NCBI GenBank assembly: GCA_020435415.1
Contig: JAGQZQ010000002.1
Coordinates: 26,301-90,300 of the forward strand
Reading direction: 5' to 3'
From: Flavobacteriales bacterium
GTDB taxonomy: Bacteria; Bacteroidota; Bacteroidia; JACJYZ01
Length of the DNA: 64,000 nucleotides
Part shown: in pieces, positions 10,040 through 49,993 of the stretch
How positions within the stretch are numbered: position 1 is the first letter of the stretch
Layout of the letters: each line of letters opens with the position of its first letter
Made by a program: the position numbers and the translations under genes
The notes under the pieces: model-generated
Database searches by the model: none
Told to the model about the DNA's origin: nothing
Seen by the model: only the letters and a program-made list of their open reading frames with translations

Positions 10040-10993
10040 ATGTCTACATCTCCTCTAGTGATCAATGGCACGGAAGTGCTTCCCGGCGAACGTAAAATCA
10101 TCAACCTGAATATTGCCAGTCTGCCCAGCCGCACACCCATTGACATTCCAATACACATCTTCCGGAGTAAAAAAGAGGGACCAACGATGTTGCTTCTGGC
10201 TGGCATGCACGGAGATGAGGCCGGTGGAATTGAGATCATACGTCGCATCATCAGTGACGCCCGAATGAAGCGCCTTCTTAAAGGAACGGTGATGGCCATC
10301 CCAATTCTTAACATGTATGGATTCCTGAACTACTCCAGGGAGGTTCCGGACGGAAAAGATGTAAACCGCAGCTTTCCCGGTAACAGGGCAGGATCTTTGG
10401 CCAGCAGGGTTACATGGCATTTTGCCCACGAGATCATGCAATTTGCAGACTACATTATAGATTTTCATACCGGAGGTGCAAGTCGGAGCAACTACCCTCA
10501 GGTTCGATGTGTGTTGGACAGGGGTCCCATTGAAGAAATGGCGGTGGCCATGGGTGCGCCCTTTGTGATCAATGCCAACCTTAGGGACCGGTCACTGCGC
10601 TGGTATGCCACAAAAAAGGGGATTCCTGCCCTGGTATACGAAGCAGGTGAATCGCTGAGGTTTGACGAACATGCCATCTCGGAAGGAGTAGATAGCGCCT
10701 TTCGGTTTATGAAGCACCTGAAAATGATCTCAAAGGCCCCACAATCAAACAATGTAACCATCCTTCGAAGAAGCGGTTGGATCAGGGCCAAATCGGCAGG
10801 CTTGTTCAGACCGTTTGTGGAAAGTGGTGAGAAAGTACGTAAAGGTACCATTATAGGTACCATCTCAGGCCCGTTTGGCGACTACAACAAGAATGTTCGC
10901 GCGAAAGAAAGCGGTTACATTATCGCGGTAAACCATATGCCAGTGATCAATCAGGGCGATGCACTGTTTCACATGGGATATGTTTCTGTCTAG
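10040..10993 (+). CDS. Succinylglutamate desuccinylase/aspartoacylase family zinc hydrolase
   Basis: GMHGDEAGGIE and DFHTGG motifs fit the AstE_AspA zinc-binding pattern. It lies 13 bp downstream of the DUF785 gene. Confidence 0.7.
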   Translation: MSTSPLVINGTEVLPGERKIINLNIASLPSRTPIDIPIHIFRSKKEGPTMLLLAGMHGDEAGGIEIIRRIISDARMKRLLKGTVMAIPILNMYGFLNYSREVPDGKDVNRSFPGNRAGSLASRVTWHFAHEIMQFADYIIDFHTGGASRSNYPQVRCVLDRGPIEEMAVAMGAPFVINANLRDRSLRWYATKKGIPALVYEAGESLRFDEHAISEGVDSAFRFMKHLKMISKAPQSNNVTILRRSGWIRAKSAGLFRPFVESGEKVRKGTIIGTISGPFGDYNKNVRAKESGYIIAVNHMPVINQGDALFHMGYVSV

Positions 10994-10994
10994 A

Positions 10995-11172
10995 AGTTAG
11001 TAGATAGTACTTAGTAGTTAGTAGTTAGTGCATTGACTACGCGAAAGGAGGTTTGCCTTCTGTTATGCCTGGGATCTGGACGCTGAGACTTTGGATGTTA
11101 GAAGATACCACATTGGATCATGGAATCCGCATTGACCCTCAACTAACTACTAAGTACTATCTACTAACTACT
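10995..11172. repeat. Perfect ~32-bp inverted repeat (agttagtagatagtacttagtagttagtag / ctactaactactaagtactatctactaact) flanking a ~110-bp core, built from the TAGTAGA heptamer family
   Basis: Direct reverse-complement comparison. It lies between convergent genes 10040..10993(+) and 11178..12017(-), and may double as a bidirectional terminator. Confidence 0.7.
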
Positions 11173-11177
11173 TTATA

Positions 11178-12017
11178 CTATTTCGACATATGCACCTGCA
11201 CCTGCGGGAATGGGATTTCAATGCCCTGTTCGTTGAATGCCTTATAAACTTTGTCGTTCATATCAAAATAGACAGCCCAGTAATCAGGCGATTTCACCCA
11301 GGCTCTTACCACAATGTTTACGGAACTATCGGCCAGTGCGGAGACTGCGGTAAACAATTCAGGGTCTTTGAAGATACGTTCATCCTGTGAAGCAAGATTT
11401 GCGATGATCTCCCTGGCTTTATCTGTGCTTGTTCCATAACCGACACCAAAAGTCCAATCCACCCTCCTCTTGTCTTCCGTGGAATAATTGATCATCGAAT
11501 TAGTGGCTAATTGTCCGTTGGGTATGATGATCGTTTTAAAATCAGGTGTATTCAAAATGGTATTGAAAATCTGAATCTCCTTTACGGTACCGGTATACCC
11601 GGATGCTTCGATCACGTCACCTACTTTATACGGTTTGAAGATGAGGATCATCACACCACCGGCCAGGTTTTGAAGTGTTCCGGACATCGCCATACCGATG
11701 GCAATACCTGCCGCACCAAGGAACGCAATAAAAGAGGTCATTTCCACCCCGAGCGTACCCAGCACACTCAGCACAAGCATGATCTTCAGGAGGGTATTGA
11801 TCAGGCTTTTCATGAACGGTTTCAATGACGGATCCAGGTGGCGCTTTTCCATCACCGTATTCAATCCACGGACCACACCCCGGATCACCCAAAGCCCAAT
11901 AACCCATACGGCAATCGCCACTAAAAGACGACCACCAACTGTGTACCCCCAGGTACGTGCCAACTCAATCAATTGATTGGGATCTGTAGATAGTCCCACG
12001 GATTCTAATTCATTCAT
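11178..12017 (-). CDS. Mechanosensitive ion channel (MscS family)
   Basis: 279 aa with N-terminal TM helices and a conserved MscS beta-domain region (PYKVGDVIEASGYTGTVKEI). Confidence 0.8.
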   Translation of the reverse strand: MNELESVGLSTDPNQLIELARTWGYTVGGRLLVAIAVWVIGLWVIRGVVRGLNTVMEKRHLDPSLKPFMKSLINTLLKIMLVLSVLGTLGVEMTSFIAFLGAAGIAIGMAMSGTLQNLAGGVMILIFKPYKVGDVIEASGYTGTVKEIQIFNTILNTPDFKTIIIPNGQLATNSMINYSTEDKRRVDWTFGVGYGTSTDKAREIIANLASQDERIFKDPELFTAVSALADSSVNIVVRAWVKSPDYWAVYFDMNDKVYKAFNEQGIEIPFPQVQVHMSK

Positions 12018-12039: not shown

Positions 12040-13299
12040 TTACTCCGGAGATTGTTCTACTTTCTTTTCACCATGTTCGTATTCGGCTTCTTCAGTCAGG
12101 TGGCCTTCTTCATCAAACACCCTATAGGTACCATGAGGTTCACCTTTATCGTCATAGCTCATACTTGCCTTGGTGGTGCCATCCGGGTAATAGACCACCC
12201 ATTGACCCGATCTGACGCCGTTGGCAAAATTACCCTTTCTGTTCAAACTTCCATCGGGGTGGTAAAAAAACCACATTCCGCTTTCCTTTCCTTCTGAAAA
12301 AGAGCCGGTTTGTTTCGGTTTCCCATTCGGATAATACAGGAGCCATTCTCCGGTGTACATGCCCTTGCTATATTGGCCCTGCATATATAATTGCCCGTTT
12401 GGATGATAGAAGTACCATACTCCATCACGTTCTCCGTTTACATAATGCCCTTTTTCATACGGTATTTCCTTTTTCCCAGAGGCTGAATCGACCGTTGCAC
12501 TGTAGAAAGACTCATACAATCCTTCGATCTTATTATGGACATAATTGCACCTGTTCATCAATGAACCGTCGGGATGGAAGCCCTGAAACGGACCATGAAG
12601 CTGACCGTTTTCGTAGAAGCATATCTTTTGAACACTGCCGTCGGGACCATCCTTGTAATAACCGGTAAACAAACTATCATATACGCCGTTACGCTTAAAT
12701 GATTTTTCACGGATATGACCGTTATCAAACCAAACCTGCTGGGAGCCCTGTTCTAAATCATGTCTTATGGTTTTGATAAAATGCCTGTTTCCATTTTCGA
12801 AATAAGACTCCGATTCACCGTGCAGATGCCCATCCACGTAATCGGTTTTCTCACGAAGTGAACCATCCTCATAAAATATTTTCACCTCTCCGTTGACAAG
12901 ATCATTTTTATAGGGTATCTCCTGATAAAGTGATCCGCTTTCATAATACACCTTTAACCGCCCCTGCAATCTTCCTTGCTCATATGGAAGTTGCTGCTTC
13001 AGCTTTCCATTGTAATGGTAGTCCTTCCAGATACCAACCATATTGCCATGCTCATACGTTCCTTCCTGCCAAAGCGTGCCGTTGTCATAATAGATCCGGT
13101 ATTCACCATGACGCACATTCTTACCATCTGCGTCCTCATACGTCCAGGTTTCCCTGACCTGGCCGGGCACATCATCATAATAAGTGGTTTCTGTATGTTG
13201 CGCCTTTATTTCCGCCCCACACACAAAGGTGCAGACCACAAAAAGGATAATGGATTTCAGAAAAAATGGATGATAATAGGTCACGGCATATTTATTCAA
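12040..13299 (-). CDS. MORN-variant (YwqK-like) repeat protein with N-terminal signal/TM
   Basis: About 14 tandem ~23-aa repeats of pattern G.W..YYpNG.L...G.Y.NG..HG. Confidence 0.65.
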   Translation of the reverse strand: MNKYAVTYYHPFFLKSIILFVVCTFVCGAEIKAQHTETTYYDDVPGQVRETWTYEDADGKNVRHGEYRIYYDNGTLWQEGTYEHGNMVGIWKDYHYNGKLKQQLPYEQGRLQGRLKVYYESGSLYQEIPYKNDLVNGEVKIFYEDGSLREKTDYVDGHLHGESESYFENGNRHFIKTIRHDLEQGSQQVWFDNGHIREKSFKRNGVYDSLFTGYYKDGPDGSVQKICFYENGQLHGPFQGFHPDGSLMNRCNYVHNKIEGLYESFYSATVDSASGKKEIPYEKGHYVNGERDGVWYFYHPNGQLYMQGQYSKGMYTGEWLLYYPNGKPKQTGSFSEGKESGMWFFYHPDGSLNRKGNFANGVRSGQWVVYYPDGTTKASMSYDDKGEPHGTYRVFDEEGHLTEEAEYEHGEKKVEQSPE

Positions 13300-14122
13300 T
13301 CATGATCTGAACCGCCTCCAGCGCCGAACGATGGCCATAATCCAGAACAGCTGCCAGGGCATACTTCCGGCCTTTCTTGATATCCGACTTTGGAATGGTA
13401 AGTTTGAAAACCCCTTTACTTCCAGGCACCAGCGTTTTCTTGGTGGGTGAATAGCGGATCTCTTCTCCTGACTGGATGTCGGCCAGCACCAGATAGACTT
13501 TGGACTCCAACATTTTATCACCGGAATTCATCACTTCTACTTCGAATTCTCTTGAGGCAGGGTCTTTTGAGATCGGTAGCTCAGTCAGGTTCTGAATTTT
13601 TCCCTGGAAATTCGTATTGGATTTGGGAGACTGGCTTACAAAGATCACGATTCGCGGTTTCAGGAGCACACCGGCTGCCACGTTCTTATCTACATCCAGC
13701 GAAGTACGCTCTGTGGCAGCTTGTACATAAATAATTCCCCACCGGGTTTCCGAACCGTTCTTTGGTACGGTCATGATCACATTCACTTCAGCTTCTTCAT
13801 TGGGTTTCAACTCCAGAAAACCAGGATTCACGCTGATCCAGTCCGCACAACTTCTCGATGCTGTTCCTGGAGGCAGTCGTTTCTTTTCTCCGTTATCATC
13901 CACCTCATAATCACCCAATTTGAATTCAAAATGCTGGGTTGTATTGGCATGATTCCGGATCAATACTTTTTCCGTGGCGATCCCTCCGGGCTCCACCGAA
14001 AAGTTCAACACCACCGGCGACACCTCAAAATCCTGGGTATATGCAGTGACATGTACCAGGAGCATGGCTAAAACAAACGCCCATTTTATGCGGATTTCAA
14101 CATTTTTGATCATCATGGTCAT
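13292..14122 (-). CDS. Secreted ~250-aa two-beta-domain protein of unknown family. Speculatively a periplasmic Ig-fold chaperone-like protein.
   Basis: Signal peptide (KWAFVLAMLLVHVTAYTQ) and a beta-rich alternating pattern. It overlaps the start of the MORN gene by 8 nt (same minus-strand operon) and is divergent from the 14387-18847 cluster. Confidence 0.4.
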   Translation of the reverse strand: MTMMIKNVEIRIKWAFVLAMLLVHVTAYTQDFEVSPVVLNFSVEPGGIATEKVLIRNHANTTQHFEFKLGDYEVDDNGEKKRLPPGTASRSCADWISVNPGFLELKPNEEAEVNVIMTVPKNGSETRWGIIYVQAATERTSLDVDKNVAAGVLLKPRIVIFVSQSPKSNTNFQGKIQNLTELPISKDPASREFEVEVMNSGDKMLESKVYLVLADIQSGEEIRYSPTKKTLVPGSKGVFKLTIPKSDIKKGRKYALAAVLDYGHRSALEAVQIMIE

Positions 14123-14356
14123 AGGTCAATAATACACATTTGTGATTTTCAAAGATAATGATTCATGTGCTCAACAACAGTAATCGTTTATGCAAAGAAA
14201 AACTTACAAATTATCGGGTTAATTGGTTGATTAATCGAAACTTTTGCGGAAAACATACCCAAAAATACATATCCATCAACACTTTACGTAACCCGTCTGG
14301 AACATTACCAGTATAAACCACTGCATTGGTGTCCAAACCAAAAAACCAAATTGTAT

Positions 14357-14383
14357 AACAAACAAACAAACAAACAAACAAAC
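14357..14383 (+). repeat. (CAAA)6-7 tetranucleotide SSR ending 3 nt before the ATG at 14387
   Basis: aacaaacaaacaaacaaacaaacaaac read directly. The ORF-track TTG start at 14351 would translate the repeat (NKQTNKQT), but the signal peptide begins at MKRNLLF. Confidence 0.9.
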
Positions 14384-14386
14384 GTT

Positions 14387-15091
14387 ATGAAAAGGAACTT
14401 ACTGTTTATTGGTATGCTGGGTATTATATCCCAGGTATCTTTCGGACAGGCTGTAAGGGATAGACAAGTGATTCCTGTAGCCGTTAACTTGAACCAGGTA
14501 TTGCGTATGACCATTACGAATGGCGGCAATATCGAGTTCGTATTTAATACCATCGATGATTATAAGAATGGTTTATCTGGGGACCAGGGTACATCATCTT
14601 CTGCGAACCCTGCAGCTTCCGAGCCTTTCTATAAGTCAGACTTCACCGTAGCTTCTTCCACCCGTTGGAAAGTGACCTATGGTTCAGAGGAAGCCACTTT
14701 CATCGGAACCGATAATCCGGCCAATACACTGGCACTTGATAATGTTGGCTTTACCATCGTAAACGGTGGTGGACACAACTTTGAAGGTACAGGTCTGGCC
14801 AAGGCAACCACCGCGGGTGCAGAGCTTTTCAGCACACCTACGGACAATGCCAATACCGGAACCGCGCTACAGGCGTATCCCGTTGACCTGATTGAGGACA
14901 ATGATGATGCGACCAGCGCCAACGCCGGTGATGCCACCGACAACTCTTTCCAGTTGGTATGGCGCTGCGGAACCGCAGAGGCCTTCACAGTGAATCCGAT
15001 GAATACGGTCAAGCTGATCGATCAGCAACCGTCTCCAACACCGGATCGCTATGTGACCAATGTGTTGTTCGAATTGGCCATTGACAACTAA
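14387..15091 (+). CDS. Secreted protein of unknown family (candidate fibre/pilin-like subunit A)
   Basis: Signal peptide MKRNLLFIGMLGIISQVSFGQA and a Gly/Thr/Asn/Asp-rich beta-type composition. Motif NIEFVFNTIDDYKNG is shared with the downstream paralog, and the C-terminus has an alternating hydrophobic strand (YVTNVLFELAI). Confidence 0.5.
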   Translation: MKRNLLFIGMLGIISQVSFGQAVRDRQVIPVAVNLNQVLRMTITNGGNIEFVFNTIDDYKNGLSGDQGTSSSANPAASEPFYKSDFTVASSTRWKVTYGSEEATFIGTDNPANTLALDNVGFTIVNGGGHNFEGTGLAKATTAGAELFSTPTDNANTGTALQAYPVDLIEDNDDATSANAGDATDNSFQLVWRCGTAEAFTVNPMNTVKLIDQQPSPTPDRYVTNVLFELAIDN

Positions 15092-15115
15092 TCCAACAAT
15101 TCGTTATGCGAAGGG

Positions 15116-15150
15116 ACCAGCCGTACTTAACTGTGCGGCTGGTTTCTCGT
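15116..15150 (+). terminator. Hairpin accagccg-N12-cggctggt plus weak T tract between the two subunit-like genes (possible attenuator)
   Basis: 8-bp perfect stem read directly. The T tract is short. Confidence 0.35.
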
Positions 15151-15206
15151 ATAATACTTCAAGTTTCGAGACCAGTCCGTGATCACTAAAAACTGAACAC
15201 AGGAAA

Positions 15207-15773
15207 TTGAAAGGCATGGTCAAATTATCACTGGTATTGCTGCTTACAACATTCGGGTTAAGTGCCTATGCACAAGACTGGAACACCGCACGGTTGAGTA
15301 TACTTTCAGGAGGAAATATTCCCTTCTATTTCAATACCCTTGACAAATACAATAGCGGTATTGAAGTAACCAACGGCACCGTGCTTGGTATCAATATCGC
15401 AGATTTGCCCACAGATCCGCCAACCCCGAATTCAACACTCGTAGGCTGGTCTCTTGAATTCAATTCCTACAATGGTGCCACGGATCTTCAGGGCAGCGGT
15501 GCAAACACACTGCCGCTGAATACCATTCAACTTGAGGCCACCAACAACATTGGCCTGGATCCGGCTGACGCCACCTACTACGGACTAAAAGACCTGACCG
15601 TAGCCGGTGAAGTTCTGATGGAAACAACCAATGCGGCACACTTGAACTGTGACTGGACAACCCACCAGGTAAATATCACATACCAGGCAGGAATGGCGAA
15701 TGGAAGTTTGTTGGGAGAAACACCGGATTATTATGTCGTGGAAATTGAGATCATTCTTATTCCACAATTTTGA
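15207..15773 (+). CDS. Secreted protein, paralog of 14387..15091 (candidate subunit B)
   Basis: Signal peptide LSLVLLLTTFGLSAYAQ. Motif NIPFYFNTLDKYNSG parallels NIEFVFNTIDDYKNG, and the C-terminal strand is YYVVEIEIILIPQF. Confidence 0.5.
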   Translation: MKGMVKLSLVLLLTTFGLSAYAQDWNTARLSILSGGNIPFYFNTLDKYNSGIEVTNGTVLGINIADLPTDPPTPNSTLVGWSLEFNSYNGATDLQGSGANTLPLNTIQLEATNNIGLDPADATYYGLKDLTVAGEVLMETTNAAHLNCDWTTHQVNITYQAGMANGSLLGETPDYYVVEIEIILIPQF

Positions 15774-15790
15774 TTGACTGGTCCTAAAAA

Positions 15791-18700
15791 ATGAAAAAGC
15801 GCATCCTCCACTTAACAAGCCTCCTGCTGTTTGCTACGGCGGGTGTTCTGCTTGCCCAGGATACGCTGAACACAAACCCTGCGCCTGGCGAGACCATTGA
15901 CAGTACCAACACAACACCACCAGACTCTGCGGGAACAGCAAAAAAAGAGGACCCTAACAAGGTACTCGTCTTCACGCGCGATCATATCGAACAAAGCGCA
16001 GATTCTACCTTTTTTAATGTATTAAAGGTCAAGAACACATCATCTGAACCGATGACAGGAACCATAGAGTTCTTTGTCCCTTTCGGTTGGGGAATCGCAT
16101 ACACACCCAAGGCAAGGTATACCATCGCTCCCGGACAAACAGAATACATTCCATTCAGATTATCTATCCCGGGAGAAGCAAAGGGCGGAATGGCACATGT
16201 GGTTAACGTTACCTTCAGAACCAACCAGGCACTATACTCCGAGAATTGCTATATCAAAATCATACGAAAGAGCAGGTGGAGCTTAAGCACCAATGCCAAC
16301 GTGGTTTACTTCAATGCCTACTATAACGACGTTCAATTCAAGGTCATCTTGTCTAACAAAGGGAATACACCAGAGGTGGTTTACCTGCAATTTGATGTTG
16401 GCAAAAATCTGATCATGCCGGAATTCAACGGTGTAAAGAATGCCAGATACGTGGAACTACCACCCTACACCGATACCACGCTGACCTTTGCCGTGGGAGG
16501 TGCTATGAAGGATGAAGATACCCCCTCATACCTTGAACAGATATGGAAAGAATCAACGGTGACCATTAATGCTTCGACAGACTACACCAAACTCAAGGAA
16601 ACGATCTGGTTCAAAAAAGTGGATAGCGAATATATCAACACCAAAGAGCAATCTGCGTCGCCATTGAATGCTGAAGTTCAGTTTTACAACCTGATGAGCA
16701 CGGCTCAACCAAGAATCAATACTTCCGTATTCGGGTCTGTGCTGTTTCCGGAGTCCAGGGAAGTCAATTATCTGGTGAATGCCAGAAATATTCCCTTTTC
16801 CCCTGGAGGAAGCAGAAGTGGTATATTCGTTGAACCTCAGAATTTAACGGCCTATGTACGTTACCGCGATACCAAATGGAATGTGATTGCCGGGGAAAAC
16901 ATTATTTCAACGGGTATCTTCAATTCCAGCGGTAGAGGCGTATCTGCCAACTACAAATTTAACAGGGACTACGATGTATACGCTTCCGCCTTTCAAAACA
17001 CCCTGTATCCCATCTATAACTATTCGGTCGGAGGAAGCGCCCTGGTATTAAAAAAGTTTCGGGTTAGCAGTGGTCTGAGTTATGAAGACAACCAGCGGAA
17101 CAGTACTTCTTCCCTCGCTTATCAATTGATGACCGGCACGACGCTTTTCAAAAAGCATTCCATCAACGGCGGTGTGATCCTGGGGCGCTCCACATTTAAC
17201 AAAACCCCTACCATTCCATCTTCATTTGACACAACCCTGTATGGATTCCGATACCGTCTCTCGTACAACTTCTCGGGAACCAAACTAAAGGTGAATGCCA
17301 CCACCACCGGAAGCACCAGGTACTTTGCACGTGGTGGCGGAAACTCAAATGCCAGGGCTGCATTCATGTATATGCTGGATAAGAAAAAGAGGGTGAATCT
17401 CATTTATGATCGCTATGGTCAAATGGCCAGCAGATTTCCGGATATTCTGTATTATGATGGCAACCGGTTCGACCATGATATGGTTCGGTTGACATTATCC
17501 GAAAACCGCAGTCAGAATTTGTATATAGAAACCGGTCCCACAGCCCGCCGTACAAAACGGTCTGCATACTATCCCGCTTACAATTTCACCACCCGTACCC
17601 TGAACACTTATGCCGGCATGTATATTTCAGCCAGGTACAGCATCTCCAACACTCAATCAATCACACCCACGGCCATTGCGGGATATTCATTCATTAAGGA
17701 AACCAATTTCGATTCCGTGCAGGTTTTTACTCCGGACAGGGGCATCTTCAGCACGAATTTAAGTCTGAGCTATCGCATGCGTCACTGGACCTTAGGCGCC
17801 TATTATGTTTACGGATCACTGAATATTGTAGATGCCCAATACCTGATCCAGACCGGTAAAATGAATCAGGTATTTTATCTGCGTCCCAACTACGAGCGTT
17901 GGTTGCGGAACAGGACCCTGAAGATCTCACTGTACATGAATTACAGCATCAGAATGCCTTCTAACCGCGAAAACAGCAGCATGAGCGCCCGCATTGACGT
18001 GTTCTCAAAGAAAGGTTGGATATTCTATGGCATGGGCAATGCCTTTATCAATTCATGGACGGATATAGAAGAAGGAAGACAATCCTATAAGACTTACAAT
18101 TTCTCCCTTGGTGTGAGAAAATCATTTGACCTGCCCCAGCCCCGGTTGAAATATTACAATGTAAAAGTAGTATGCTTCCGTGACGTAAACGGAAACAAAA
18201 AGAAGGATGAAGGTGAGCCTATGATCGCTAATATCCTGACAGACATCAAACGCCTGGAATATGACAAAGCCCGTGGTCATGGTAACTTTGCCCAGATGGA
18301 ATTGCTCACCGGACCCAATGGTGAGATTAACTATTACAATCTGCCGGAAGGAAGCTACCGCCTTACATTCCTGCCGCTGACCAACCTCGGGGATCTGTAT
18401 AATGTGAATGGTGACAAGCAGACCATTGTGGTGAAAAGTCACACCACGGTTTACATTCCTTTTGCCGCATCCTACAAGATCAAAGGAAAGATCGTGCTGT
18501 TAAGGGATAAATTCAGCAGCGACGGCGCCATCAATGTGGAAGGTATACGCGTGACCGCAACGGGTCAGAATGGTGATACTTATAGTGTTCTGACCGACAA
18601 AAACGGAGAGTATATATTGAACGTACCCCAGGCGGGCTATTTCACGGTGAAAGTAAATAACATCTTTGGTGACCGGTTCAAATCGGACAAGGAAGAATTC

Positions 18701-18847
18701 CTGATTGAGTTCAATGGTTTTGATACCTTTAATGTGGACTTCACTTTCACGGAGAAGAAACGCCAGATCAATCTGCAGGGAGGCGATTACCAATTCCAGT
18801 TCCTGAAGGGAGATAATCAGGAAGAAGATGATGATGGCGGAGAATAA
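15791..18847 (+). CDS. 1018-aa secreted/outer-membrane protein of unknown family (candidate usher-like assembly platform)
   Basis: Signal peptide. The N-terminal ~250 aa are Ig-like. The central ~500 aa are rich in Y/F/N/S/T/R alternations typical of an OM beta-barrel. The C-terminal ~250 aa resemble a carboxypeptidase-regulatory-like beta-sandwich, with an acidic tail. Confidence 0.45.
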   Translation: MKKRILHLTSLLLFATAGVLLAQDTLNTNPAPGETIDSTNTTPPDSAGTAKKEDPNKVLVFTRDHIEQSADSTFFNVLKVKNTSSEPMTGTIEFFVPFGWGIAYTPKARYTIAPGQTEYIPFRLSIPGEAKGGMAHVVNVTFRTNQALYSENCYIKIIRKSRWSLSTNANVVYFNAYYNDVQFKVILSNKGNTPEVVYLQFDVGKNLIMPEFNGVKNARYVELPPYTDTTLTFAVGGAMKDEDTPSYLEQIWKESTVTINASTDYTKLKETIWFKKVDSEYINTKEQSASPLNAEVQFYNLMSTAQPRINTSVFGSVLFPESREVNYLVNARNIPFSPGGSRSGIFVEPQNLTAYVRYRDTKWNVIAGENIISTGIFNSSGRGVSANYKFNRDYDVYASAFQNTLYPIYNYSVGGSALVLKKFRVSSGLSYEDNQRNSTSSLAYQLMTGTTLFKKHSINGGVILGRSTFNKTPTIPSSFDTTLYGFRYRLSYNFSGTKLKVNATTTGSTRYFARGGGNSNARAAFMYMLDKKKRVNLIYDRYGQMASRFPDILYYDGNRFDHDMVRLTLSENRSQNLYIETGPTARRTKRSAYYPAYNFTTRTLNTYAGMYISARYSISNTQSITPTAIAGYSFIKETNFDSVQVFTPDRGIFSTNLSLSYRMRHWTLGAYYVYGSLNIVDAQYLIQTGKMNQVFYLRPNYERWLRNRTLKISLYMNYSIRMPSNRENSSMSARIDVFSKKGWIFYGMGNAFINSWTDIEEGRQSYKTYNFSLGVRKSFDLPQPRLKYYNVKVVCFRDVNGNKKKDEGEPMIANILTDIKRLEYDKARGHGNFAQMELLTGPNGEINYYNLPEGSYRLTFLPLTNLGDLYNVNGDKQTIVVKSHTTVYIPFAASYKIKGKIVLLRDKFSSDGAINVEGIRVTATGQNGDTYSVLTDKNGEYILNVPQAGYFTVKVNNIFGDRFKSDKEEFLIEFNGFDTFNVDFTFTEKKRQINLQGGDYQFQFLKGDNQEEDDDGGE

Positions 18848-27803: not shown

Positions 27804-27887
<84 letters not shown>

Positions 27888-43720: not shown

Positions 43721-43760
43721 ACTAACTACTATCTACTATCTACTAACTACTATCTACTAA
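43721..43760. repeat. Tandem heptamer array CTACTAT/CTACTAA x5
   Basis: Read directly, in the divergent region between alkA(-) and osmC(+). Confidence 0.9.
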
Positions 43761-47642: not shown

Positions 47643-49169
47643 TTGCCTGAACATAAAAGCAAACGGTCCTCTTACCACGCCATACACCACCATGTGTTCT
47701 GGCCATCCCTGGCGGTGATCATTCTGTTTATCGTGGTTACACTGCTGAATCACAAACGTACCGGCGCCTTTTTCTCCGACATACAAACCATGATCTCGGT
47801 GAATACAGGCTGGCTAATGATCCTGGTTGTAAATATCCTTCTGATATTCTGCCTCTACCTGGCATTTGGGAAGTATGCCAATATCCGGCTCGGAGGACCA
47901 CGCGCTAAACCGGAATTCTCTACATCTGCCTGGTTTGCCATGCTGTTCAGCGCCGGAATGGGTATCGGACTTTTATTCTGGAGCGTCGCAGAGCCGATCT
48001 CCCACTATGCCAATCCCCCTACCGGAACCGGAATGACACCAGCTGCCGCACAAACAGCGATGAATGTGACTTTTCTGCACTGGGGACTCCACGCATGGGG
48101 AATTTACGCACTGGTTGGACTGGCATTGGCGTACTTCACCTTTAATAGGAAGCTCCCTCTCACGATCAGTTCACTGTTTCATCCGATCCTCGGAAAACAC
48201 GTAAACGGCCCGATCGGACACATCATTGATACCCTTGCCGTCATCGCTACGCTGTTCGGATTAGCAACCTCACTCGGTTTAGGTGCCAGACAGATCAATG
48301 CCGGTTTGCATTTCCTTCTCGAAACAGAAATCAGTACCAACGTGCAGATTTTCATCATCGCCGGGACAACCCTGGTAGCTACCGCTTCCGTTGTACTAGG
48401 ACTAAAAAACGGGGTGCGGCGACTGAGCGAACTGAACATGTACCTGGCCGCCGCATTTCTCGCAGCCATGCTGTTGTTCGGTCCCACATTATTTATCATC
48501 GACTCCTTTGTTCAGAACACGGGGAGTTACATTCAACAGCTACCCCGCCTGAGCTTTTGGGCAGAAGCCTACAAACAAACCAGCTGGCAGAATGACTGGA
48601 CCATATTCTACTGGGGGTGGTGGATCGCATGGTCACCATTCGTAGGAATGTTCATCGCCCGTATATCCAAAGGACGTACCATCCGGCAATTTGTTCTTGG
48701 GGTATTGCTGGTGCCCACCCTGCTTACATTCATATGGCTGTCAACATTCGGCGGGGCCGCCCTTCATTTGCAGATCACCGGTATGGCAGACATTGTGGGC
48801 GCTGTAAACGATAATGTGGCTACAGCCCTGTTCAAACTGCTCGCCCATTACCCCTACGCCTTTATTTCCTCCACCATCGGACTTGTGCTCATTTGCAGCT
48901 TTTTTGTCACATCCTCGGACTCGGGCTCACTGGTCATCGACAGCATCACCTCGGGTGGCCGGCTGGATGCACCTGTCGGACAAAGGATCTTCTGGGCTCT
49001 CACCGAGGGCGTCGTTGCAGCCATTCTTCTGATCGGAGGCGGATTACAGGCATTACAAACCGCTTCAATTACGACCGGACTTCCTTTTGCCGTGGTGTTG
49101 CTGGTCGTTTGCTACTGCCTTTACAAAGAATTAAATAAACACGAATCACCAAAAAAACAACAACCATGA
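47643..49169 (+). CDS. BCCT family (betaine/carnitine/choline) transporter
   Basis: 508 aa, 12 TM, with conserved BCCT segments (GWWIAWSPFVGMFIARIS, WTIFYWGWW). Confidence 0.9.
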   Translation: MPEHKSKRSSYHAIHHHVFWPSLAVIILFIVVTLLNHKRTGAFFSDIQTMISVNTGWLMILVVNILLIFCLYLAFGKYANIRLGGPRAKPEFSTSAWFAMLFSAGMGIGLLFWSVAEPISHYANPPTGTGMTPAAAQTAMNVTFLHWGLHAWGIYALVGLALAYFTFNRKLPLTISSLFHPILGKHVNGPIGHIIDTLAVIATLFGLATSLGLGARQINAGLHFLLETEISTNVQIFIIAGTTLVATASVVLGLKNGVRRLSELNMYLAAAFLAAMLLFGPTLFIIDSFVQNTGSYIQQLPRLSFWAEAYKQTSWQNDWTIFYWGWWIAWSPFVGMFIARISKGRTIRQFVLGVLLVPTLLTFIWLSTFGGAALHLQITGMADIVGAVNDNVATALFKLLAHYPYAFISSTIGLVLICSFFVTSSDSGSLVIDSITSGGRLDAPVGQRIFWALTEGVVAAILLIGGGLQALQTASITTGLPFAVVLLVVCYCLYKELNKHESPKKQQP

Positions 49170-49993
49170 TGACGAAGGATTTGATGAAAGAGAAAAAGAA
49201 CCAGGATTTTGGAAATAATCCAACTGAAGTCAGGGAAACAGATCACTACAAAGACGAATACGTTCACAAGTTCGTAGAAAAGTGGGACGAACTTATCGAC
49301 TGGAAAGCCCGCGGCGAAGGCGAGGGTAAATTCTTTATTGATGAGTTAAAGAAGCGGGGTAAGCATAAGATCCTGGATGTGGCTACCGGCACCGGTTATC
49401 ATTCCGTGAAACTACTGGATGAAGGCTTTGAAGTGTGGAGTGCAGACGGAAGTCCGGTCATGCTCTCAAAAGCCTTTGAAAATGCCAGAAAACACGGTCA
49501 CCTTATGCATACCATTTATGCAGACTGGCGTTGGCTTAACAAGGATGTGCATGGTAAATTCGATGCCATCATCTGCCTTGGCAATTCTTTTACACACCTG
49601 TTCTCGGAAAACGACCGCCGCAAGGCACTGGCTGAGTTTTATTCCGCACTGAAACACGATGGGATACTCATCATCGATCACCGTAATTATGATGCCATAC
49701 TGGATAATACGGAATTCACCAACAAGCATACATTCTATTATGCCGGAGATAAGGTCAAGGCTGAACCTGAGCATGTGGATGAAGGCCTGGCCCGTTTCAG
49801 GTACGAGTTCCCCGACAAGTCGGAGTTTCATCTCAACATGTTTCCACTTCGGGAAAAATATGTGCAAAACCTGTTAAAGCAGGTGGGTTTTCAAAACATC
49901 TCCACGTACGGAGACTTTCAGGAAACATACCGTTCCGAAACACCGGACTTCTTCATACACATTGCCGAAAAATCATACAGAGAAAACGAATAG
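49166..49993 (+). CDS. Glycine/sarcosine N-methyltransferase (GSMT)
   Basis: SAM motif ILDVATGTGYHSVKLLDEGFEVWSADGSPVMLSKAFEN closely parallels characterised halophile GSMTs. It overlaps the BCCT stop (ATGA). Confidence 0.8.
   Translation: MMTKDLMKEKKNQDFGNNPTEVRETDHYKDEYVHKFVEKWDELIDWKARGEGEGKFFIDELKKRGKHKILDVATGTGYHSVKLLDEGFEVWSADGSPVMLSKAFENARKHGHLMHTIYADWRWLNKDVHGKFDAIICLGNSFTHLFSENDRRKALAEFYSALKHDGILIIDHRNYDAILDNTEFTNKHTFYYAGDKVKAEPEHVDEGLARFRYEFPDKSEFHLNMFPLREKYVQNLLKQVGFQNISTYGDFQETYRSETPDFFIHIAEKSYRENE

Follow-up and report, generated by a model that had tools for sequence, protein, structure and literature searches.

The window, i.e. the whole stretch of 64,000 nucleotides of the Flavobacteriales contig that was analysed, contains a conserved gene cluster at positions 12040-18847. 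On the minus strand this cluster encodes a MORN-repeat protein and a PapD-like chaperone, and on the plus strand two subunits and a 1018-aa putative outer-membrane protein. Its gene order was kept in the closest relative as well as in about 50 further loci. The 264-nt divergent intergenic region of this chaperone-assisted pilus cluster carries, at its 3' end, a CAAA repeat tract that abuts the first subunit gene. The features of the locus are listed in Table 1.

Table 1. Features at the repeat-bearing locus, with positions counted from the first letter of the window (n, number of CAAA units)
Feature	Position	Strand	Basis and remarks
PapD-like periplasmic chaperone candidate, 276 aa, two Ig domains	13292..14122	-	fold; divergent from the subunit gene
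Exact TANNTTTG -7 box	14150..14157	-	28-35 nt upstream of the chaperone-like gene; outside the repeat
Second exact TANNTTTG -7 box	14260-14267	-	outside the repeat
Blocks in common with the 84% relative: CGTAACCC, AACAT, TATAAA, GCATT, TGTCC, AAAAACC	14287..14347	+	alignment; candidate non-canonical promoter or regulatory region
Upstream in-frame TTG	14351..14353	+	in frame at n=3, 6 and 9 only; as a start, unconserved in homologues
GTATAAC, predicted 5' stem arm	14353..14359	+	prediction; complement of GTTATG at 14384-14389, with the repeat as loop
Perfect tetranucleotide tract AA(CAAA)6C	14357..14383	+	minus strand reads (TTTG)n
gtt spacer and ATG start	14384..14389	+	TT at -2/-1 is the family consensus (75% and 78% T)
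TLP-1-like donor-strand-exchange pilus major subunit, 234 aa, secreted	14387..15091	+	fold, homology
Second subunit, paralogue, 188 aa	15207..15773	+	31% identity over 116 aa, E 4e-8
1018-aa protein with Ig-like N- and C-terminal domains	15791..18847	+	weak Pfam matches, conserved synteny

The gene directly downstream of the tract encoded a protein with a typical signal peptide at its N-terminus (MKRNLLFIGMLGIISQVSFGQA), for which no match to a Pfam or NCBIfam model was found. It belongs to a large family that is strongly conserved in Bacteroidota, with 614 matches of which the best ones showed 55-84% identity. An AlphaFold model of the subunit (38 homologues, pLDDT 85) was compared to known structures with Foldseek. 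Best matches were 9ikk (TLP-1b) and 9ikj (TLP-1a) with E values of 1e-6 and 2e-6, respectively, and TM scores of about 0.45-0.48, followed by the donor-strand-exchange pilins CfaB, CooA, CS17, EcpA, PapA and SafA as well as by TasA and archaeal cannulae. A profile-to-PDB sequence match to 9ikk/9ikj was weak (E 0.14) and located in the region of the N-terminal strand. According to the predicted model, the protein has the fold of a TLP-1-like donor-strand-exchange pilus subunit, and the description of this gene as fibre-subunit-like in an earlier note on this DNA was borne out by the matches to TLP-1a/b and donor-strand-exchange pilins.

The divergently encoded chaperone candidate showed fold matches to CfaA, CsuC, CupB2, Caf1M, FimC and WxLIP (E 1e-10 to 1e-6). 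Signal peptide, fold and synteny together describe a secreted subunit with a dedicated PapD-like chaperone encoded nearby. The weak Ig-like matches of the 1018-aa protein and its conserved position suggest that it may represent an outer-membrane usher. TLP-1 fibrils were found in pond water with the CryoSeek approach and were described as bacterial pili that are potentially uncategorised and whose source is unknown, with the nearest predicted structure coming from a Flavobacteriales bacterium (PMC11494351). The cluster described here, which is conserved in Bacteroidota and encodes a PapD-like chaperone, can be linked to these orphan cryo-EM fibrils. It supplies both a gene context and a Bacteroidota source, neither of which was given by the CryoSeek study.

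The repeat itself reads aacaaacaaacaaacaaacaaacaaac and is followed by the trinucleotide gtt and the ATG of the subunit gene. It comprises 27 nt, or 6.75 perfect units, and ends 3 nt 5' of ATG 14387. Tandem Repeats Finder reported a period of 4, 6.8 copies, 100% matches, no indels and a score of 54. A 16-nt piece of the tract had a single site in the window and occurred in none of 100 dinucleotide-preserving shuffles, and CAAACAAAC was found at just one further place in the 64 kb. No other period-4 array was present in the window, nor did one occur among related Bacteroidota loci totalling 926 kb, and arrays of at least 3.75 units were found in none of the 113 fetched loci. The length and perfection of the tract are far above chance expectation; the earlier note was right to single out a perfect and statistically exceptional CAAA repeat abutting the start codon. 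With its 6.75 uninterrupted units over 27 nt the tract is a simple sequence on which slippage can act, and at 6-7 tetranucleotide units it is among the shorter tracts when compared with known contingency loci. The density of tandem repeats in this genome segment was 0.17 arrays per kb versus 0.05 per kb in related loci (about 3.5 times higher), which suggests a slippage-prone background. An assembly artefact is unlikely as the 27 nt are shorter than the read length; the consensus sequence of a MAG would mask heterogeneity.

We compared the locus with its relatives by a genome scan (80 loci), a metagenome scan (25 loci) and look-ups of the relatives with 84% and 79% protein identity. The closest relative (84% protein identity, syntenic) was represented by five independent assemblies that were identical in their upstream sequence and free of the repeat. 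In the intergenic alignment its leader was 14 nt shorter, with a gap equal to 3.5 units placed after the AAAAACC block, and a degenerate AACCAATCAAACACC was found at the homologous place of the repeat. The CAAA array was also absent from the 79% relatives and from about 105 further homologous loci, which had AT-rich leaders. Look-ups with the exact proteins (the subunit from both starts, P0001, and the 188-aa and 1018-aa proteins) yielded no other contig, and the only other contig of the species, a metagenome contig with an identical chaperone-like gene, ends about 200 nt before the tract. Given the conserved blocks, the 14-nt gap and the lack of an array in all relatives surveyed, the alignment indicates that the tract grew recently and in this lineage from an A/C-rich proto-repeat.

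The blocks shared with the 84% relative all sit upstream of the tract, from which we infer that the tract is transcribed as part of the leader, although it may be partly or wholly untranscribed. The earlier note had assumed a -7 promoter box whose spacing to the start codon would be altered by the repeat. The Bacteroidia -7 box, TAHHTTTG, is nearly invariant in F. johnsoniae, where leaders have an average length of 33 nt (PMC6847099). No exact TANNTTTG was found on the plus strand of the 264-nt intergenic region, which leaves this assumption without its promoter element. The best plus-strand candidates agreed at five of six positions and lay at -148 and -252 relative to the ATG. The two exact boxes on the minus strand are suitably placed for the chaperone-like gene. 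Within the subunit family -7 boxes were scattered between -27 and -260 with no fixed position, so that homology gives no position for the start site.

Other kinds of leader and promoter elements were also considered. An invertible promoter, which is the usual mechanism in Bacteroides, was rejected, with no convincing inverted repeats flanking the intergenic region. A search of the leader against Rfam gave no match to any RNA family or riboswitch, and motifs of the Hfq (ARN)n and Crc AAnAAnAA types were rejected on inspection because the period of the tract is 4 and not 3. In one sub-clade of the subunit family (L033, L041, L088 and L095) we observed a G+C-rich hairpin (for example ccggtgccccggga...cggggtgcc) that spans positions of about -45 to -12 relative to the subunit gene. 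It is flanked by an exact TATTTTTG -7 box (about -60) on one side and the ATG on the other, and may form a leader stem-loop.

The upstream in-frame TTG at 14351 named in the earlier note does exist, and an ORF 14351..15091 is contained in the ORF listing. Homologues of the subunit were 226-238 aa long with a nearly invariant M1, and in every locus M was followed by K or R and then by a hydrophobic core. No counterpart of the 12-codon extension that would result from the TTG was found in the homologues, including the 84% relative. As all homologues begin with the residue encoded by ATG 14387 and none has the extension, this ATG is the start and the tract is located outside of the ORF. Ending 3 nt before this conserved ATG, it does not have the position inside an ORF by which a simple sequence repeat (SSR) in a contingency locus changes the reading frame. 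The earlier claim that a change in unit number shifts the frame relative to TTG 14351 is correct for a 4-nt unit, but it does not describe a switch: the TTG is not a conserved start, and frame changes relative to it therefore cannot turn the real ORF off. With 5 or 8 units, an ORF initiated at the TTG would stop at a TGA that overlaps the ATG, and with 4 or 7 units it would continue for 77 nt within the gene.

Initiation in F. johnsoniae is favoured by A at positions -14 to -11 (especially -12 and -13), -6 and -3 and by low structure, while Shine-Dalgarno sequences are unused (PMC6847099). In 93 non-redundant upstream regions of the subunit family anchored on the ATG (L002-L113, positions -30 to -1), A was present at -13, -12 and -11 in 78, 86 and 83%, respectively, T prevailed at -2 and -1 (Table 1), and G was nearly absent from -20 to -8. 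At the level of sequence, this upstream signature matches the experimentally defined translation initiation region (TIR) of F. johnsoniae (PMC6847099). The leader in the window contains A at -14, -13, -11, -10, -9, -7, -6 and -5, has kept TT at -2/-1 and carries no G from -30 to -4. With 20 A and 3 G+T in 30 nt it ranks first in A content and last in G+T content among the leaders of the 39 ORFs of the window. It resembles the Shine-Dalgarno-less TIRs of Bacteroidia (Baez et al. 2019, PMC6847099) in being A-rich and G-poor, in having A at -14, -13, -11 and -6, in lacking a Shine-Dalgarno sequence and in showing little predicted structure, and the AAA signature at -13 to -11 is shared by its family. 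It differs from them by the C at -12 and the G at -3, and by the repeat itself, as ordinary TIRs contain no tandem repeats. The predicted mean probability of being unpaired between -20 and +15 was 0.70 at n=6 compared to 0.72-0.74 in the relative, i.e. structure was low in both.

When leaders with different unit numbers were compared, bases -24 to -1 were identical for all n of at least 5, owing to the periodicity of the repeat and its fixed distance of 3 nt to the ATG. This stretch contains the positions that were shown to tune initiation in Flavobacterium (PMC6847099).

Two further leaders deserve mention. Another A/C-rich and G/T-poor leader (aaataaacacgaatcaccaaaaaaacaacaacc) was found at 49136-49165 before the ORF 49166-49993 and showed no repeat structure. 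Paludibacter-type homologues of the subunit (L030, L031, L032 and L092) carry a run of 9-10 A followed by G and 4-5 T directly before the ATG, and these homopolymers vary by one base among close relatives (9A+4T, 10A+4T and 9A+5T). Such one-base differences indicate that leaders of the subunit family tolerate small changes in length.

The possible influence of unit number on structure was addressed by folding the leader with 0-12 units in a thermodynamic model, using six assumed 5' ends. A 6-bp stem was predicted between the two arms given in Table 1. The modelled probability of an unpaired AUG rose from 0.09-0.11 at n=1-2 through 0.45 at n=4 and 0.55 at n=6 to 0.62 at n=12. Across n=5-7 it ranged from 0.51 to 0.58, so that one unit corresponded to a change of about 0.03-0.04. 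This trend was kept for five of the six assumed 5' ends and failed for one, and the relative's leader reached about 0.5. In the model, short tracts would sequester the AUG in the predicted stem, and 5 or more units would free it. Following this curve, any effect of unit number would be gradual and would have reached its plateau with the present number of units.

The explanation that we favour, with modest confidence, is that the tract represents a recent, lineage-specific slippage microsatellite in an A/C-rich, G-poor, Shine-Dalgarno-less leader, where it acts at most as an unstructured spacer. Replication slippage would have expanded a short A/C-rich proto-repeat such as the one in the closest relative. 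Bacteroidia ribosomes, which ignore Shine-Dalgarno sequences and prefer unstructured A-rich and G-poor leaders, would readily accept (CAAA)n, which contains neither G nor U and should be unable to pair with itself. Gain or loss of a unit would leave the ORF and the 24 nt seen by the initiating ribosome untouched and would alter only the length of the unpaired spacer between GTATAAC and GTTATG, the latter including the AUG. The tract would be tolerated since the initiation region is preserved, and it may help to hold the AUG-sequestering stem open. We infer both the slippage origin and the accessibility effect. Because a unit change leaves the TIR and the ORF alone, the tract would act as a tolerated and possibly mildly beneficial unstructured leader or spacer, and not as a binary phase switch.

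The phase-variation switch proposed in the earlier note is thus unsupported by the position of the tract outside the ORF, the lack of a plus-strand -7 box, the invariance of -24 to -1 at n of at least 5, the narrow range of modelled accessibility at n=5-7 and the absence of the tract from the 84% relative and more than 100 other homologous loci. Several points speak against the spacer reading. The tract may be partly or wholly untranscribed, and the folding trend, predicted for a 6-bp stem, failed for one assumed 5' end. The A at -12 and -3, which are positive determinants in F. johnsoniae (PMC6847099), are replaced by C and G, and an uninterrupted perfect tract would be expected if slippage were ongoing or selected. 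On present evidence the locus would represent a microsatellite that has grown within an A-rich initiation region without disturbing it.

Surface-fibre subunit genes are often phase-variable, and the position of a perfect tetranucleotide tract, exceptional in the genome and among relatives, directly upstream of such a gene might indicate an SSR contingency rheostat. Slippage would then change the leader length or the distance to regulatory sites, and thereby tune transcription, mRNA stability or translation of the major subunit. The 14-nt difference in leader length from the closest relative shows that this length is evolutionarily labile, and graded AUG accessibility was predicted below about 5 units. 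We nevertheless consider such a rheostat unlikely. The predicted effect is level at the present length, the TIR is unaltered by unit changes, and the search for promoter elements gave none with a spacing that would be affected. As the sole such tract in 64 kb it gives no sign of a phase-variable gene repertoire, and phase variation in Bacteroides as covered in a 2025 review is invertase-mediated (PMC11868660).

Precedents for such tuning are found outside the Bacteroidota in UspA2 and NadA. In Moraxella catarrhalis uspA2, the number of AGAT copies in the 5'UTR ranges from 6 to 23 between strains and affects expression (Attia & Hansen 2006, summarised in PMC4679880). The repeat of uspA2 is a tetranucleotide repeat between the promoter region and the start of a surface-protein gene, and the CAAA tract probably has a similar position; both lie outside the ORF, so that any effect would be graded and without frameshift. 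Copy-number variation and an effect on expression are known for uspA2, whereas the CAAA tract is known from one sequence. Its host furthermore belongs to the Shine-Dalgarno-independent Bacteroidia, and its initiation region consists entirely of the tract, which ends 3 nt before the ATG. The TAAA repeat of Neisseria meningitidis nadA (PMC2791445) is likewise an A-rich tetranucleotide repeat upstream of an adhesin gene and works by spacing and not by frame. It is, however, located upstream of the core promoter between the NadR and IHF operators, whereas all conserved blocks are found upstream of the CAAA tract, where neither operators nor promoter boxes were identified.

That the locus is a working contingency locus, in which slippage of (CAAA)n tunes leader length and with it the production of a TLP-1-like pilus in a free-living member of the Flavobacteriales, appears to us still less probable, indeed improbable. 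If true, it would be the first SSR-based variation in Bacteroidota, and one acting via a Shine-Dalgarno-independent initiation region. To our knowledge, SSR-based (as opposed to invertase-based) phase or rheostat variation has not been described in this phylum before. If the tract varies, SSR-based surface variation would be extended to environmental Bacteroidota, and the locus would offer a natural test of leader length in Shine-Dalgarno-independent initiation.

The tract might also be read as an array of protein-binding sites. In RNA it would be recognised by a single-strand RNA-binding or an S1/cold-shock-type factor, and in DNA the minus-strand (TTTG)n would act like a promoter element of the divergently transcribed chaperone operon. 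[quoted passage not shown] The TAACTGA heptamers of Beggiatoaceae, Cyanobacteria and a few Bacteroidetes (PMC4679880) are similar to the CAAA tract in that these short tandem repeats end a few nt from the start codon. The heptamers occur at many loci per genome, whereas in the 64-kb window the tetranucleotide tract is confined to a single locus and does not belong to a genome-wide set. On the minus strand, TTTGTTTG matches TANNTTTG at five of six positions, but the mismatch concerns the second-position A of the -7 box, which is nearly invariant (PMC6847099) and is T in TTTGTTTG, and the two exact -7 boxes are closer to the chaperone-like gene. Together with the lack of an Rfam match and the absence of the tract from all homologous loci, this makes a binding array very unlikely.

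We give almost no credence to an ON/OFF switch via TTG 14351, in which the in-frame state would yield an N-terminally extended subunit and the out-of-frame states an overlapping upstream ORF hindering initiation at ATG 14387: the TTG is in frame at n=6, is surrounded by an A-rich context and would open the ORFs that end over the ATG at n=5/8 or enter the gene at n=4/7, but the extension was found in none of the homologues with their nearly invariant M1, relative L107 has no equivalent TTG, a first base of the start codon other than A is a negative determinant in F. johnsoniae (PMC6847099), and the TIR of ATG 14387 would be unchanged in every frame state.

Apart from the CAAA tract, the window contains intergenic heptanucleotide arrays of AGATAGT/ACTATCT (with the variants ACTAACT and TAGTAGT) in up to 9 copies, none of them at the subunit gene. 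They are located at 1398-1419 and 1765-1798, at 10991-11029 and 11142-11181, at 27804-27866 and at 43721-43759. Twice they form an inverted pair around a segment of 110-350 nt, and they recall repeats of the TAACTGA type (PMC4679880).
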